A stretch of DNA of 64,000 bases. Source: Eledone cirrhosa. Its lineage: Eukaryota. A program made the position numbers and the translations under genes. Each line of letters starts with the position of its first letter. The first letter of the stretch is position 1. The DNA is taken from assembly GCA_964016885.1 (NCBI GenBank), contig OZ024747.1, positions 64,914,001 through 64,978,000 on the forward strand, read 5' to 3'. Under the pieces are notes generated by a model that had not been told where the DNA came from, searched no databases, and was given only the letters and a program-made list of their open reading frames with translations. Shown here piece after piece: positions 5,121 to 37,559 of the stretch.

Positions 5121-5161
<41 letters not shown>

Positions 5162-5391
5162 AAGTAAGTATGTTTTGAAACAGTGAGCAGGTTAGAAAAT
5201 AGAATAGCTTTCACCATATGTTTGACTAAAGGAATTTTAGCCTGATAATGGGGTTTAGAACCCTCAGATAAATGGAAAAAGATGCATATTGATGTCCCAT
5301 GTACGTCAATACTCATCTTTTTCCATTTATCTGAGGGTTCTAAACCCCATTATCAGGTAAAATTCCTTTAGTCAAATATACGGTGAAAGGT

Positions 5392-5397
<6 letters not shown>
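5121..5397. mobile_element. Fold-back copy of tRNA-carrying family C
   Basis: Inverted arms meet at ATTGATG|TCCCATGTACGTCAAT (~5297); (TA)n on both sides; homologs at 23330-23807 and 35954-36199. Confidence 0.8.
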
Positions 5398-5439
<42 letters not shown>

Positions 5440-13116: not shown

Positions 13117-13562
13117 TCGACAGTCGATCGACTTTCGTCAAATCGCACAGAGGAAACAATGTTTCCGTCGGTCTTTCCAATTGCTAATACTATCTGCCAG
13201 ACGCAAATCCAGGCAGAAGGAGCAACGGGAAAAGTATCTTGCTCAAGGACATAACGCATCGCTCGGTCCAGGAATTTAACTCACAATCCCATGTTTGTGA
13301 ATTCAATTCTCTTACCACTCAACCACACGCGTTCACTATATATATATTGAGAGAGAGAGAAATATATGCTTTCGCTGTATTTTTGTCTAAAGAAATTTCT
13401 TTATGCAAAGATACGGCGAAAACTTCTATTTATATTTTTCAAACTCGCTCGCTGTTTCAAAATAAACTTACTAATATATATAGAGAGAGAGAGAATAAGA
13501 GGGCGTTAGCCCAGTGTTTGCATAGCTACGGCTTCCTAAATACCGTGTTTCTTTAGAAATAC
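12972..13562. repeat. ~85-bp inverted repeat pair (12972-13060 / 13480-13562) enclosing a SINE and a family-C-like fold-back (13360-13475)
   Basis: GTATTTCTAAAGAAACACGGTATTTAGGAAGCCGTAGCTATGCAAACAC and its reverse complement. Confidence 0.8.
13100..13337 (-). mobile_element. tRNA-derived SINE (second family); related copy at 48310-48600 (+)
   Basis: Minus strand GTGAACGCGTGTGGTTGAGTGGTAAG (A box)...GAGTTAAATTCC (B box)...TGTCCTTGAGCAAGATACTT. Confidence 0.75.
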
Positions 13563-23293: not shown

Positions 23294-23329
<36 letters not shown>

Positions 23330-23461
23330 GTAAGTATGTTTTGAAACAGTGAGCGAGTTTGAAATTAGAAAATATATAGCTTTCACCGTATTTTTGACTA
23401 AAGGAATTTTAGCTTGATAACGGGGTTTAGAACCTTCAGATAAATGGAAAAAGATGAGTAT

Positions 23462-23532
23462 TGACGTACATGGGAGACGAACCCACATCTGTGGTTATCG
23501 GGACCACTGTGCTACCATTACACCAACACATC
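23462..23532 (-). tRNA. tRNA-like cloverleaf (non-canonical anticodon loop CCCGATA)
   Basis: GATGTGT-TG-GTGTAATGGTAGCAC-A-GTGGT-CCCGATA-ACCAC-AGAT-GTGGG-TTCGTCT-CCCAT-GTACGTC-A. Confidence 0.7.
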
Positions 23533-23638
23533 ACCCATCTCTTCTAATTTCAAACTCGCTCACTGTTTCAAAACATACTTACTTGCCATTTAAACTCGCT
23601 AAGAATGTAGTTTCTAATTTGAATGAAAAGAGAACGGT

Positions 23639-23709
23639 GATGTGTTGGTGTAATGGTAGCACAGCGGTCGCGATAACCACAGATGTGGGTTCGACTCCCA
23701 TGTACGTCA
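23639..23709 (+). tRNA. tRNA-like cloverleaf with A box, B box and downstream T5
   Basis: A box TGGTGTAATGG, B box GGTTCGACTCC, 71-nt cloverleaf, TTTTT about 10 nt downstream; lacks U33 and R37, so probably not a decoding tRNA. Confidence 0.75.
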
Positions 23710-23795
23710 ATACTCATCTTTTTCCATTTATCTGAGGGTTCTAAACCCCGTTATCAAGCTAAAATTCTTTTAGTAAAAATTACGGTGAAAGCTAT

Positions 23796-23840
<45 letters not shown>

Positions 23841-28050: not shown

Positions 28051-31000
28051 GCAATAATAATAATAACGACAACAACAATAATAATATACATGTTCATATA
28101 TATATACACACACACGCACGCACATAAGCATATCTACACACACACACACACACAAACACACGATAGCAACTAACAGTGCTGCGATCGAATGTGGCTTTTT
28201 AGCCCAGCCAATGATCCAAAATGTCTTGCACAGAGTCGGCAACCAAAACATTTACTGGGAATAGTCGGCTGTGGTTGGAGTTCGTGTACTTTTGCATGTC
28301 GCTTGAGTCCTCCTGCTGATTTACATTCTCTACCACATGTTTGGCAAGCATGATGAGTAGCATCTCCAACAGCAGCCTGGTAGTCAACCACTGGTCTTAC
28401 TTTATGACTGCGAAGATGACTTTCGAGTCCAGCTTTGCTTAGGCAGAGTCTCGCACAGACGCTGCATGTCAGAAACACAGGAGGACCCTCGCCGTCTGGA
28501 AGTGCAACAGCAATACCCTTCCTCACGTCCCGCTTTACTTTCTCGTGTGCGATTCGAGATGCCTCAAAGGCAACTTTTCCCTCATATACAGTCTTTCTCC
28601 ATTTATTACGATCAGCAGCAATATTTTCCCATGTATCAGCAGAGATGTTAGCGTCTTTCAGAGAGGCCTTCAAGGAATCCTTATACCTCTTTTTTGGTTT
28701 ATGTGGCGGTCGTTTTCCTTTAACCAACACTCCATAGAAGAGTTGTTTTGGTATTCTAGAATCCTTCATCCTGGCAAGGTGACCACTCCAACGGAGTCGC
28801 TGCTTAAGCACAAGAGCTTCTATACTGTCACACATAGAGCTTTCCAAAATCTCGACATCACTGATGTGGTCCCTCCAGCGAACGCCATGTATCCGTCTGA
28901 GACACATCTGATGGAAACGCTCCAATTGCTTAAGGTGGCGTCGATATGTGACCCAGGTCTCGCAGGCATAAAGAAGACAAGAGAGTACACATGCCCTGTA
29001 CACCTTTACCTTTGTCCTCCTGCATATGTCTCGCCGACCCCAGAGTCGCCTTTCTAGCTTTCCGAAAGCATCACTTGCTTTCCTAATCCTAAGTGAGATT
29101 TCACTGTCAAGGTTGCCGTATCGATTGACAGTGCTTCCCAGGTAGACAAACTGATCAACCACTCCAAGTCGTTTGCCATACACATAGATGTTTGGTTCAG
29201 TGTACTGCCTACCAGGTGCAGGTTGGTACATGACGACGGTTTTCTTGAGACTGACAGTCAAACCCAGGGCAGTGCAAGCGTCAGAAAATACATTCAAAAT
29301 GTGCTGCATATCACTCTCTGTGTGCGCTACAAGATCGCAATCATCTGCATACAAGAGGTCTCTTATGACTGATGTAAATACTTTTGTCTTCGCAGCAAAG
29401 CGCCTGGTGTTAAATATGCTGCCTGAGGTTCGATATCGGATGTAAACACCATGCTCGCAATTCCTGAATGCAATACAGAAAACCATTGCAAAGTATATGG
29501 CAAACAGGGTCGGTGCTGGAATATCCCCCTGTTTCACTCCATTTTTTACTGAGATAGGCTCCGACATGTTACCTCCGACATTAACCCAAGCCTTCATGTC
29601 GTCATGGAAAGACCTAACTAAAGCAAGGAACTTATCAGGGCAACCAAGTTTCTGGAGAACCTTCCATAATGCATCTCTGTTGACAGTATCGAAAGCCTTT
29701 GTCAGATCGACAAAAACCTGATACAGATCCAAGCCCTGTTCAATGCACTTCTCCTGGAGCTGTCTAGCTGAGAAGATCATATCAGTAGTGCCGCGTCCAA
29801 CACGAAAACCAGATTGACTTTCAGGAAGGACACAATCTGCAATGTGTGTCAGCAGACGGTCCAGAAGCACCCTACATAAAACTTTCCCCACGACAGAAAG
29901 CAATGATATACCTCTGTAGTTCCCACAATCATTCCTGTTACCCTTTCCCTTGTACAAGACCACCATTACTGCATCTCTCCAGTCCTCAGGCACGGATTCA
30001 TTAGCCCATATCCTTCCAAACAGAGAGTGAAGACGTTGCAGGAGTCTCTCACCACCATATTGTAGGAGCTCAGCATGTATGCCATCCATACCTGGAGATC
30101 TTCCACTGTTCAGCTTCGAAATAGCCACTGCAACCTCCACAAGTGTCGGAGGCTCTGCGAGAGCTACTTTCACAGGACTTTCCGGAATGAGATTGAGGAA
30201 ATCTTCACTGACGACAGACGGCTGATTCAAAAGATCATCAAAGTGCTCCCGCCACCTTCGTAGAATTCCCTGTGAGTCACGAAGAAGTTCTTTGCCATCC
30301 TTGCTGCGAATCGGTGTCACCAGAGAAGAAGACGGTCCATAAACCTCACGCAAGAGACTGTACAACAGCTTTGTGTTATTGCAATCAGACGCAGTTTGTA
30401 TCTCACCAGCCTTCTCACTCCACCACTGATCCTTCATCTGAGAAAGACTCCGCCTAACACGTGATTTTACATCCTTGAGCTCCTCATGCAACGTATTCCT
30501 CTCCTGTGGTCTTGCCGTCAAGTAGCGTGACAGAGCGCGCCTCTTATCAGCCAACAAGTCATCTATATGCACATCTTTCTCATTAAACCAGTCCTGATGT
30601 TTTCTCTGCACCAATCCCAGAACACGTCTGCCTACATCATAAACCGACTTTTTAAGGGTCGGCCAATCCTCACCAAGATCTGCAGCCTGCATCTCTTCTT
30701 CCAATGTCCTCTTCACATTTTTATCCTTAAGACGAGCAGCATTCAATCTTTTGGGCAGGGTAACACCAGGAGCCCGGATTTTACGTTTGGTGATTAGATT
30801 CACTTTTGCGCGTACCAGGCGGTGGTCCGTCCAGCACTCAGCTCCACGAAGAACACGAACACACCGCACATCCTGTCTGTCACGCATCCTGACTAGGACG
30901 TAGTCCAAAAGATGCCATTCCTTAGATGCAGGATGCATCCATGTGGTCTTGAATTTGTTCTTTTGTTGGAACATGGTGTTGGTAACACACAGATCCAGCT

Positions 31001-31776
31001 CCTCACACATCTGCAGCAAGAGCATACCATTGCTGTTACACTTTCCCACCCCATGCCTTCCGATTACATTCCATGTGTTAAAATCCCTACCCACTCTAGC
31101 ATTAAAGTCACCAAGCACGATGACTTTGTCTGCCTGAGGGATATTTCTTAAAACACCTTTCAAGGCATGGTAAAAGGACAGTTTTTCTTCATCGACAGAA
31201 TTCATAGTTGGAGCATACACACTCACCAGGGTAGCATATCTTCCCTTGTCCAGCGGAACTCTCATGGACATAAGACGCTCACTAATCCCCACTGGGAATT
31301 CTTCCAATTTATTCACCAGTACAGTCTTAACAGCAAATCCTACCCCAGCCTCTCTTCTGGTTCCTTCATCTCTTCCTTTCCAGAAGAATGTATATTCTCC
31401 ACAAAATTCCGTAAGATGACCATCTCCAGCTAACCTCGTCTCAGACAAAGCCACGATGTCAAGATCGTAACGTCGAAGCTCCTTCGCAACAAGAGCGGTC
31501 CTTCGTTCAGGACGCTCCAAAGAATCCCTGTCAAGCAGCGTCCGTACGTTCCAGCAGCCAAGACTAAATGCCCTGTTTGGCTCTATTACAATGGCACGAT
31601 GACGGGCGGGCCCAGGTTGTGATAACTTGGGGCCCCTGCCCTTATTGCCAATGATCTTTTTTGTTCCAGAACCCAAATTGGCAATTATCTCGTTTACATT
31701 GTTCTGGAACATCATTGAATTGGAAAAAAAAAAAAAAAAAAAAGGGGAGAAAAAAAAAAAAAAAAAAGTAATAATA

Positions 31777-31811
<35 letters not shown>

Positions 31812-33128
31812 ACACTATTAATAATTATTAATGCACTCGTGCAATGCCTGTGCGTGACGAATATTTTTAAAGTGAGGAAAGACTGTGCACTGAACCAATC
31901 CCACTCTCTGAGCGACAGTAGCTATAACCCGAAAAGAAGAAAAGATCAACATCATCGGTAACTACTGAGCCGCAGGTTTTATATCGGAGTTAACCCAGTT
32001 TCCTGAGATGCCTTCTCCTAGAAGAATACCCTGACATGGGCTAGGGGTTCTTCACTCCCAGTGGTTTAACTGCGCGATCGGGCATCCAGCCCGATTATTT
32101 CTATGTCCCCGCGCAAAAAAAAAAAAAAAAAAAAAAAAAATTACTTATTGACACTTATACGTACGACATACACACACACGCATACATATGCGTGCACACA
32201 GCAACACTCACACACACAACAAACACACACACACGCTACTCTACTCACTTACACGCACACACACACATATATATATATATATTACCGTCATTACTGATAC
32301 AAGATTACCAGATTATGTCAACTGTTGACTTTCAAGAGTTTGTATAGTTGAAGCCGATCGTATTACAGTCCAGTATTACTATAATTGCTTTACAGCATAG
32401 AGTTATGGCTCTCCACGGAGTCAACAAAAGAGAGTACCAGTGATGCGCTGGCCAGTCGCTGGATCCGTGCCAAAAGCAGAAAAATTATTATTAAAGTTGT
32501 TCTTAAGGCCAGGTCGCTGGTGATGGTGATGGCGACGGCGGTGGCGGTGGTGGTGGTGGTGGCAGTTGATGTTGTTGTTCTGTTGTGTGTGTGTGTGTGT
32601 GTGTGTGTTTTGTTATTTTGAGTTTTTTTTTTTTTTTCCTTTCTTTTTTTTCTCCTTTTTTTTTTTTTCCCTTCCCTTTTCTTTTTTCTTTTCCCTTCCT
32701 TTTTTTATGTTTTGATGCCGCTGTTGTTGTTGTTGTTGTAATTGTTGTAAATGTTCATTTCAGTTCATTCTGAAGCTGTTGTTGCTGTAAACATTAGGGC
32801 CGGTGTTGTTGTTGTTGTAGATGTTGGGGTTGAAATCTGGTTGTTTGACTGAGTGATGTATATACACACATATACATACACACACATATATATATATACA
32901 TTCATCAGAGAGTAGAGAGTTTGACAACAGGTCGATGACTTTAGTCTCGATAGGGTATGGTATGGTAATGACATGTGATGGTGGGGAGAGAGTGTAGACG
33001 TTATTGTGGTGGTGTGGACAGTGAGATGTATCTAGTTCATTTGACCGTTTTCTTCTCTTAGCAAAATTTGAATTCTAGCCATGTTATATTGAGATGTAAG
33101 TAAATGTAAAATATAAATAAGGATTGCT
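27853..33128 (-). mobile_element. Full-length RTE-clade LINE (5' boundary uncertain: at least 32115, possibly 33128)
   Basis: Single intact ORF, 3' stem-loop at 27921-27956 and (TATG)n tail; RTE-type 5' UTR motif TAGCCC...TCTAGGAGAAGG at ~32010-32060; second (TACA)n run at 33129. Confidence 0.8.
28170..31715 (-). CDS. RTE LINE polyprotein: APE endonuclease + reverse transcriptase + 3 C2H2 zinc fingers (1181 aa)
   Basis: WNVRTL, LSETR, VYAPT, GDFNAR, LDYVLV, TDHRLV (APE); YRGISLLS, QSGFR, DLTKAFD, GVKQG, YADD, YLGS (RT); three CxxC-x12-H-x3/4-H motifs. Confidence 0.97.
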   Translation of the reverse strand: MMFQNNVNEIIANLGSGTKKIIGNKGRGPKLSQPGPARHRAIVIEPNRAFSLGCWNVRTLLDRDSLERPERRTALVAKELRRYDLDIVALSETRLAGDGHLTEFCGEYTFFWKGRDEGTRREAGVGFAVKTVLVNKLEEFPVGISERLMSMRVPLDKGRYATLVSVYAPTMNSVDEEKLSFYHALKGVLRNIPQADKVIVLGDFNARVGRDFNTWNVIGRHGVGKCNSNGMLLLQMCEELDLCVTNTMFQQKNKFKTTWMHPASKEWHLLDYVLVRMRDRQDVRCVRVLRGAECWTDHRLVRAKVNLITKRKIRAPGVTLPKRLNAARLKDKNVKRTLEEEMQAADLGEDWPTLKKSVYDVGRRVLGLVQRKHQDWFNEKDVHIDDLLADKRRALSRYLTARPQERNTLHEELKDVKSRVRRSLSQMKDQWWSEKAGEIQTASDCNNTKLLYSLLREVYGPSSSLVTPIRSKDGKELLRDSQGILRRWREHFDDLLNQPSVVSEDFLNLIPESPVKVALAEPPTLVEVAVAISKLNSGRSPGMDGIHAELLQYGGERLLQRLHSLFGRIWANESVPEDWRDAVMVVLYKGKGNRNDCGNYRGISLLSVVGKVLCRVLLDRLLTHIADCVLPESQSGFRVGRGTTDMIFSARQLQEKCIEQGLDLYQVFVDLTKAFDTVNRDALWKVLQKLGCPDKFLALVRSFHDDMKAWVNVGGNMSEPISVKNGVKQGDIPAPTLFAIYFAMVFCIAFRNCEHGVYIRYRTSGSIFNTRRFAAKTKVFTSVIRDLLYADDCDLVAHTESDMQHILNVFSDACTALGLTVSLKKTVVMYQPAPGRQYTEPNIYVYGKRLGVVDQFVYLGSTVNRYGNLDSEISLRIRKASDAFGKLERRLWGRRDICRRTKVKVYRACVLSCLLYACETWVTYRRHLKQLERFHQMCLRRIHGVRWRDHISDVEILESSMCDSIEALVLKQRLRWSGHLARMKDSRIPKQLFYGVLVKGKRPPHKPKKRYKDSLKASLKDANISADTWENIAADRNKWRKTVYEGKVAFEASRIAHEKVKRDVRKGIAVALPDGEGPPVFLTCSVCARLCLSKAGLESHLRSHKVRPVVDYQAAVGDATHHACQTCGRECKSAGGLKRHAKVHELQPQPTIPSKCFGCRLCARHFGSLAGLKSHIRSQHC

Positions 33129-35909: not shown

Positions 35910-35953
<44 letters not shown>

Positions 35954-35956
<3 letters not shown>

Positions 35957-36199
35957 CTTTCACCGTATTTCTTTACTAAAGAAATTTTAGCCTGATAATG
36001 GGGTTTAGAACCCTCAGATAAATGGAAAAAGATGAGTATTGACGTATTCCCATGTACGTCAATACTCATCTTTTTCCATTTATCTGAGGGTTCTAAACCC
36101 CATTATCAGGCTAAAATTTCTTTAGTCAAAAAAATACGGTGATTGCTATTCTATTTTCTAATTTCAAACCTGCTCACTGTTTCAAAACATACTTACTTA
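35954..36199. mobile_element. Family C fold-back
   Basis: Arms meet at ATTGACGTA|TTCCCATGTACGTCAAT (~36047). Confidence 0.8.
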
Positions 36200-36385
36200 T
36201 ATATATATATATATATATATAATATGTTGAGAAGGTAACACACCAGAGAGAGATATATAGTGCGTTATCAATAATACAGGGAAAAAACCACCAGTGTATG
36301 GAATCTATAACCTATGAAAGGCATACTATAGACACGATAATTAAAAATATAAATTAAAGCGTAAATAAATACCTCTATAACTATT

Positions 36386-36468
36386 TTACACACGTACAAA
36401 TCCAGAGATATGTTTCGCCAGAGAAATTGTTGAAAAAAATGTTAGTCTCGGTTCATCAGCGTGTGTAA
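36386..36468 (-). ncRNA. Type I hammerhead ribozyme
   Basis: TTACACACG-CTGATGA-ACCGAGA..TCTCTGGC-GAAA-CATATC..GATTTG-TA-CGTGTGTAA; perfect 9-bp stem I. Confidence 0.88.
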
Positions 36469-36924
36469 GGCTATACATCTCAGACAACACTAAGAGAATT
36501 TTACAATTGACTGTCCAGCCACACGTGGGAGAGAGAAGTCACAGCGTGTTTAAGGGCAGTGAACCAGTGGCCTCTGAGAGACGAACTGCTAGAAAGGGCA
36601 GCCCAAAGCCACTCAGAGAAGAGTGCTCAACCAAACAGAGTTAGGAAAGGCTGTTGTTAGGAGCGAAATATCACGATAAATTAACGGAGGCATAGGCCGT
36701 CGTTATTCCCTGTAAATAATGTGCTCAAAGGGGAAGAGATCCTGAGCCCTTTAGAATATAATATGTTGAGAAGGTAACACACCAGAGAGAGATATATAGT
36801 GCGTTATCAATAATACAGGGAAAAAAACACCAGTGTATGGAATCTATAACCTATGAAAGGCATACTATAGACACGATAATTAAAAATATAAATTAAAGCG
36901 TAAATAAATACCTCTATAACTATA

Positions 36925-37007
36925 TTACACACGTACAAATCCAGAGATATGTTTCGCCAGAGAAATTGTTGAAAGAAATGTTAGTCTCGGTTCATCAGCG
37001 TGTGTAA
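36925..37007 (-). ncRNA. Type I hammerhead ribozyme (tandem copy)
   Basis: Same motif 539 bp from the first. Confidence 0.88.
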
Positions 37008-37205
37008 GGCTATCTAACAACAGCCTTTCCTATCTCTGTTTGGTTGAGCACTCTTCTCTGAGTGGCTTTGGGCTGCCCTTTCTAGCAGTTCGTCTCTCAG
37101 AGGCCACTGGTTCACTGCCCTTAAACACGCTGTGACTTCTCTCTCCCACGTGTGGCTGGACAGTCAATTGTAAAATTCTCTTAGTGTCGTCTGAGATGTA
37201 TAGCC

Positions 37206-37291
37206 TTACACACGCTGATGAACCGAGACTAACATTTCTTTCAACAATTTCTCTGGCGAAACATATCTCTGGATTTGTACGTGGTGTGTAA
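37206..37291 (+). ncRNA. Type I hammerhead ribozyme (inverted copy)
   Basis: Same motif with a 3-nt GTG duplication in the 3' strand of stem I. Confidence 0.85.
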
Positions 37292-37559
37292 TATAGTTAT
37301 AGAGGTATTTATTTACGCTTTAATTTATATTTTTAATTATCGTGTCTATAGTATGCCTTTCATAGGTTATAGATTCCATACACTGGTGGTTTTTTCCCTG
37401 TATTATTGATAACGCACTATATATCTCTCTCTGGTGTGTTACCTTCTCAACATATTATATTCTAAAGGGCTCAGGATCTCTTCCCCTTTGAGCACATTAT
37501 TTACAGGGAATAACGACGGCCTATGCCTCCGTTAATTTATCGTGGTATATATATATATA

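Follow-up and report, generated by a model that had tools for sequence, protein, structure and literature searches.

A short tRNA-bearing repeat of Eledone cirrhosa with Penelope-type insertions and a candidate m1A58 signature in its genomic copies

The genome of Eledone cirrhosa harbors a short repeat with a tRNA-like module inside each unit, and this repeat occupies well over a thousand sites. We consider it about two in three likely that it is a non-coding, Penelope-type (PLE-type) retroelement probably copied in trans by an autonomous PLE, whose tRNA-like module probably folds and is methylated to m1A58, and that reverse transcription stalls there in approximately half of the arms. The repeat was recognized in a window of 64,000 nucleotides (GCA_964016885.1, contig OZ024747.1, positions 64,914,001 to 64,978,000 of the forward strand), the whole stretch of DNA that was analyzed, and its copies were counted in a 3.0-Gb assembly (G000).

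Exact matches in this assembly numbered 1323 for an 18-mer motif from the D arm, 1462 for a T-arm motif and 1759 for a tail motif, and the reversed control of each gave 0. The copies fall into at least three subfamilies that differ in the anticodon loop and the tail: A (259 nt), B, and C (282-290 nt, with a tail of ~60 nt). The same variants and T-arm joints were present in three sequencing runs, which are contigs of one sample, possibly the source itself, and not independent. Throughout, unit positions are counted from 1 at the start of the tRNA-like module; on this scale, unit A56 and G55 correspond to standard A58 and G57, and the anticodon loop spans 31-37.

A preliminary description of the window had reported one permuted unit of ~260 bp. 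A natural tandem copy bears out the period (259 nt), but the locus at 23330-23807 consists of two inverted arms rather than one unit (Table 1), and a 46-nt inverted repeat (23330-23375/23537-23582) terminates inside the insertion. Comparison of units, together with the tandem copy, also bears out the proposal that ~95 bp upstream of the module are part of the repeat, and the circular permutation of the tandem unit is supported. A diverged short relic of the 3' part of the family lies at 13360-13472.

Table 1. Coordinates of the tRNA-unit insertions and their parts in the window.
Feature	Position	Strand	Basis
(TA)n target flank, left	23310..23329	.	sequence
Long arm, unit ~-10 through tRNA to 203, tail included	23330..23543	-	
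PLE-type tail, unit ~170-203, at only one outer end of insertion	23330..23363	-	
tRNA-like module of long arm; A58>T at 23477	23462..23532	-	
Short arm, one full unit + ~7 nt (unit 163 round to 169), terminal TTCTAAT	23542..23807	+	
Leader, predicted pairing with trailer	23622..23638	+	
tRNA-like module of short arm; A58 equivalent at 23694	23639..23709	+	
Trailer including T5 (23719-23723), 3' strand of predicted 17-bp helix	23712..23728	+	
Two small hairpins, not HHR; motifs 23732-23758 and 23758-23774	23732..23774	+	
(TA)n target flank, right	23808..23835	.	
Second family insertion, both arms truncated in T-arm region, one from unit 58	5161..5398	.	
Third family insertion, arms truncated in T-arm region, one from unit 57/58	35949..36198	.	

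The 71-nt cloverleaf noted previously is in fact present twice, with Rfam tRNA scores of 36.7 bits in the short arm and 43.4 bits in the long arm, and ARAGORN calls the module "Ser-CGA". The A and B boxes are perfect, as had been described (A 23646-23656, B 23688-23698), and the reported T5 run starts 10 nt past the discriminator and sits within a predicted 17-bp leader/trailer helix (fold z -4.8 in an intact copy and -1.9 in the mutated window copy). The minimum-energy fold of the bare 71-mer is not the cloverleaf (z +0.96), and no compensatory pair changes were found among 10 closely related copies. Two downstream hairpins that had been pointed out do fold, but are no more stable than shuffled sequences (z 0.07). 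The anticodon loop had been called non-canonical, and the odd loop is real, but it is confined to the young subfamily, the others having U33 (CTGGATA). G33 occurs in subfamily A, T37 occurs in every subfamily, and the top acceptor pairs are not kept in subfamily C. By U33, a purine at 37 and a locus of its own, the module does not qualify as a translating tRNA gene, and all 30 of the D-arm matches examined fall inside the repeat.

The tRNAs closest to the module are bacterial and phage tRNA-Trp (17 of 18 pattern matches are Trp), which agree with it at 38-45 of 71 positions ungapped and 53 of 71 gapped; host Trp scored below them in a host panel that is partial and biased. Since large tRNA collections favor chance best matches, we claim no bacterial origin for the module. 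Other tRNA-related sequences were seen in the course of these searches. A tandem array of ~50 tRNA-Trp-motif copies lies at G000:C4:353394880-353489295, and dispersed high-scoring tRNA-like copies that have one common body and Ala, Val, Thr, or Asp anticodons (L143, L145-L153) are probably another tRNA-derived repeat.

In agreement with the preliminary description, no hammerhead ribozyme (HHR) was found in the unit by Rfam or by a motif scan. The scan gave 0 strict matches on six strands; it recovers two of four control HHRs and misses those of L101 and L109, and unusual variants could escape it. A relaxed scan for the HHR core returned a sole match, which lacks stem II and is on the antisense strand. 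The layout and (TA)n target had been likened to those of HHR families, and a HHR family within the window does share both: at 36217-37548 it forms an inverted two-arm insertion with a 539-nt tandem unit and a type I hammerhead core at ~37215-37279. Its 88-nt tail has 460 exact matches in G000, and its 3' ends fall at 178/182 and at 264-266 (23 loci parsed of 30 fetched). End mapping thus ties this retrozyme-like family to PLE-type insertion.

The insertion architecture of the tRNA-unit family was read from the first 100 of the 1759 tail matches (chromosome C1), which gave 88 regions and, after removal of 3 duplicates, 85 loci with 145 arms; four insertions already known from other searches were not drawn again into this sample. 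In 50 of the 85 loci a long arm is paired with an inverted short one; 30 loci show a single orientation and 5 are arranged otherwise. A (TA)3 or longer tract lies directly outside 123 of 140 outward ends. The 3' ends are bimodal (157-173 and 202-209), which gives two fixed ends ~40 nt apart that define the tail. Partial tandem organization is present (24 of 145 arms exceed one unit), with arrays of up to 3.5 units. The short arm extends further 5' than the long arm in 20 of 49 two-arm loci, which argues for separate cDNAs rather than a fold-back copy.

These features are familiar from PLEs, for which sections of Craig et al. (PMC8557442) describe partial tandems, an inverted truncated copy, a 30-40-bp tail and a bias toward microsatellites; the same sections describe Naiad PLEs without canonical HHRs and the HHR motif as absent in Naiad/Chlamys. 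Reverse transcription in PLEs starts internally at two sites, which define the tail, and involves AT-rich nicking and extension of both strands (Frangieh et al., PMC11167929). Autonomous PLE ORFs, with RT followed by GIY-YIG, are abundant in G000. No DNA homology of the unit to PLE bodies was detected in 70 of the 150 listed GIY-YIG loci (10,596 candidates), the sole match (L359) being a neighboring insertion, and its resemblance to one autonomous PLE family (L091) is limited to an 8-nt terminal motif. Given the lack of body homology in these 70 loci, we describe the element as working like a non-autonomous PLE and assign it to no clade. Overall, we regard its mobilization by PLE machinery as very likely.

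L091, L092, and L097 are autonomous PLEs in which a minimal HHR with a U3-A8 type of core lies downstream of the ORF. Where insertions of L091 and L092 meet (TA)n, they terminate in TTTCTAAT, and so does the short arm of the tRNA-unit family. Another short inverted, (TA)n-flanked family is found in L211 (~1780-2250), where two lie in a row. In L140, ~25 nt are duplicated in inverted orientation on the flanks, and L137, which is not located in (TA)n, has a short direct repeat, possibly a target duplication.

The arms of the tRNA-unit family frequently break off in the T arm. Of 122 arms that reach unit position 66, 62 stop at 56-66 (42 of 72 when counted by locus), compared to 1 of 61 at 45-55 and 6 of 127 at 67-77. 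The stop occurs in long arms (37/60) and short arms (23/44), and is therefore tied to position and not to arm length; it is also seen among loci with a single orientation (13 of 29, one with a small inverted fragment). Microhomology is not a sufficient explanation, given that a perfect TATATA tract at 153-163 collects just 2 stops. In the HHR family that served as a control, the 44 5' ends are dispersed, 5 of them within 9 nt of the cleavage site. An exact inverted junction at the CATG palindrome is common to 554 loci, with 1 in the control. Genome-wide, apparent starts at unit positions 58, 57, 56, 55, and 54 number 78, 37, 54, 35, and 3, respectively, so that the count drops from 35 to 3 immediately 5' of G57, with the qualification that the five start patterns filter flanks unequally. 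Chance matches with the flank shift apparent starts 5' by 1-2 bases. The cliff 5' of unit 55 (G57) lies 1-2 nt past the textbook m1A arrest, an offset that we ascribe to chance and microhomology matches, although this is not proven.

Substitutions also concentrate at this position. Relative to the 1462 exact T-arm copies, there are 46 single changes at A58 (23 to T, 16 to G, and 7 to C), compared to 26 at A45, 17 at A62, and 15 at A66. The excess is 1.8-3.1 fold (p 1.5e-5; transversions p 1.6e-6) and involves ~3% of copies; it appears only in the genome-wide counts and is not discernible in a smaller set of 148 copies (3 changes). The A>T loci examined (21 of 23) are spread over several subfamilies, and 6 of them have a sister copy with a full T arm, which retains the A in 5 cases, including the locus at 23330-23807. 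A>T is also the commonest change at the control A62 (9/17), and A58 adjoins a CpG. The signature of m1A is described as arrest 3' of the site together with misincorporation (PMC4787781), which, in the part of a study on MALAT1 that deals with the tRNA-like mascRNA, is mostly A>T and affects an RNA modified at this very position (10.1101/648345). A TRMT61-type gene is present in G000. The combination of truncation and substitution at A58 corresponds to the m1A58 signature of reverse transcription and suggests that the module is likely folded and methylated as a tRNA in vivo. Judging from these genomic copies, we find a block to reverse transcription by m1A58 probable.

In the mechanism that we favor, tandem copies would be transcribed on the tRNA-sense strand into RNA that exceeds the length of a unit. 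The A/B-box (Pol III) promoter would most likely drive this, with read-through of the T5 into the next unit; host read-through RNA could also be the source of the longer arms. Use of the Pol III promoter seems to us an evenly balanced proposition, and the T5 just behind the tRNA should end most Pol III transcripts before the sites at which reverse transcription starts, which counts against the model, as do the 24 of 145 arms that are longer than a unit. TRMT6/61A would then methylate A58 of the folded module. A PLE protein, acting as a dimer, would nick both (TA)n strands and prime cDNA synthesis internally, at unit ~169 and at unit ~206, and both cDNAs would tend to stall at m1A58. The CATG palindrome, which lies 3-6 nt inside, would allow the stalled cDNAs to be joined to each other; alternatively, AT/TA microhomology would join them to the target. 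Read-through, at times with a wrong base opposite m1A, would regenerate complete units.

We considered whether the same PLE-mobilized element could meet its limit at the T loop through RNA structure (the T arm/elbow) or through nuclease cutting in the T loop, without methylation. Arms also stop in the anticodon loop (14 of 60, between 34 and 44) and close to +1, and these secondary peaks resemble cut sites; the cliff is at G57 and not exactly at 59, and three overlapping palindromes at 61-69 would favor joining there. However, structure or cutting would leave the independent, A>T-rich substitution excess at A58 unexplained, and the stronger 17-bp helix gathers only 10 of 137 stops (78-88); we therefore consider this reading unlikely. 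Slightly less doubtful, and compatible with the preferred PLE model, is a tRNA-processed analogue of retrozymes, in which RNase P (or P plus Z) would cut multimers and the monomers would circularize and be copied by rolling-circle reverse transcription. The leader/trailer helix closes the permuted monomer, the tandem arrays are consistent with such multimers, and 31 of 154 tRNA copies, in a sample biased to full copies, have an arm 5' end at -4 to +13. On the other hand, these ends are spread broadly and do not pile up on a single base at +1, nor at 72/73, 112 of the 154 copies run beyond -34, and mononucleotide shuffles differ from the circular fold, which is the more stable, by only ~1.3-1.8 SD. 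Pairing between leader and trailer makes an atypical substrate for RNase P/Z, which also counts against processing of this kind.

Two further readings are far less probable. One is a tRNA-SINE moved by a LINE that targets (TA)n, for example RTE, in which twin priming would have produced the inversions; the A/B boxes and T5 fit such an origin, and an intact RTE-type ORF lies at 28170-31814 (-), where the stop-to-stop frame of an RTE-like LINE runs uninterrupted for 1214 aa and includes endonuclease, RT and C2H2 fingers. A window-wide blast of the unit gave no match at this LINE, however, and the upstream sequence belonging to the unit, the two fixed 3' ends and the partial tandems all speak against a SINE. 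The preliminary description had noted the lack of a SINE-type tail and of target site duplications; the unit indeed carries neither a simple-repeat tail nor an A tail, and target site duplications are unreadable in (TA)n. In an ordinary SINE most copies would begin at tRNA position 1, which is true of only 9 of 145 arms (257-7; a tenth is an alignment split), and end mapping thus largely refutes this reading. The least probable alternative is a MITE or foldback DNA element whose center was deleted after insertion. Its inverted termini in (TA)n and the instability of long palindromes would suit this origin, but the outer ends are unequal because of the tail and matching terminal inverted repeats at both outer ends were not encountered. 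Moreover, single-arm loci share the stop site, and neither the tandem permuted units nor the substitution excess at A58 would be expected.

Among known systems, non-autonomous PLEs (e.g., MRC1 of the Chlamys clade) are described in parts of PMC8557442 and PMC11167929 as having partial tandems, an inverted 5'-truncated copy, a 30-40-nt tail at one end, AT-rich or microsatellite targets and no coding capacity, all in common with the tRNA-unit element. The latter differs in its internal tRNA-like module with A and B boxes, its lack of an HHR, the absence of detectable homology to an autonomous family and its single dominant truncation site. The pLTR of canonical PLEs (Penelope/Neptune) has a hammerhead motif, whereas none was detected in the element. 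Metazoan non-LTR retrozymes, as portrayed in sections of PMC7229834, likewise form tandem non-coding units (170-400 nt), and PLEs are proposed there as their mobilizers; each retrozyme unit has a type I HHR, however, and circRNA is abundant, whereas no such HHR was detected in the tRNA-unit element, for which circles are hypothetical.

The nearest concept is that of TRIMp3 (Cassandra, Helenus, Ajax; PMC10886601), for which passages of that work describe a small-RNA gene in the terminal repeat of a non-autonomous retroelement, a proposed Pol III promoter and often no sequence in common with the partner. According to those passages, TRIMp3 elements have two LTRs, PBS/PPT, 4-5-bp target site duplications and LTR machinery, in contrast to the PLE-type ends found here; compared to Helenus, the tRNA-unit element has head-to-tail units without an internal region, and inverted arms. 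SINE2-type elements, which are tRNA-derived, also have a tRNA-related region with A and B boxes, but here the tRNA is internal rather than at the head, and two fixed 3' ends replace a single LINE-like one. Tailless retropseudogenes are depicted in a portion of PMC5322556 as 3'-truncated, while the copies described here are 5'-truncated inside the tRNA. The mascRNA of MALAT1, as treated in part of 10.1101/648345, is likewise a tRNA-like fold in a longer RNA that is modified at the A58 position, but it is not mobile, and its signature came from RNA-seq whereas ours comes from genomic copies. Sections of an octopus repeat annotation (PMC13282606) list many unclassified SINEs and no such element. 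In the open-access literature we found neither a tRNA-bearing PLE-type element nor a genomic m1A fossil, although repeat databases might carry the family as an unclassified SINE or repeat.

We tentatively suggest, with somewhat less confidence than we place in the promoter, that the element may represent a third class of parasite built on a small-RNA gene, the first two being SINEs, which LINEs drive, and TRIMp3, which depends on LTR machinery. It would be a PLE-driven, Pol III-transcribed tRNA mimic, in which host tRNA enzymes replace the hammerhead, copies record m1A58 at base resolution and host methylation limits spread. The element would add PLE machinery to the systems that mobilize elements derived from small RNAs, and it shows that a short unit of PLE type can do without a hammerhead. 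That the two arms halt at the same site and are linked by a 4-nt palindrome also lends in vivo support to the idea that a PLE dimer carries out twin priming, a step of the PLE cycle that is still open and for which the element could serve as a small test substrate. Finally, genome assemblies alone could reveal RNA modifications of past germline transcripts.
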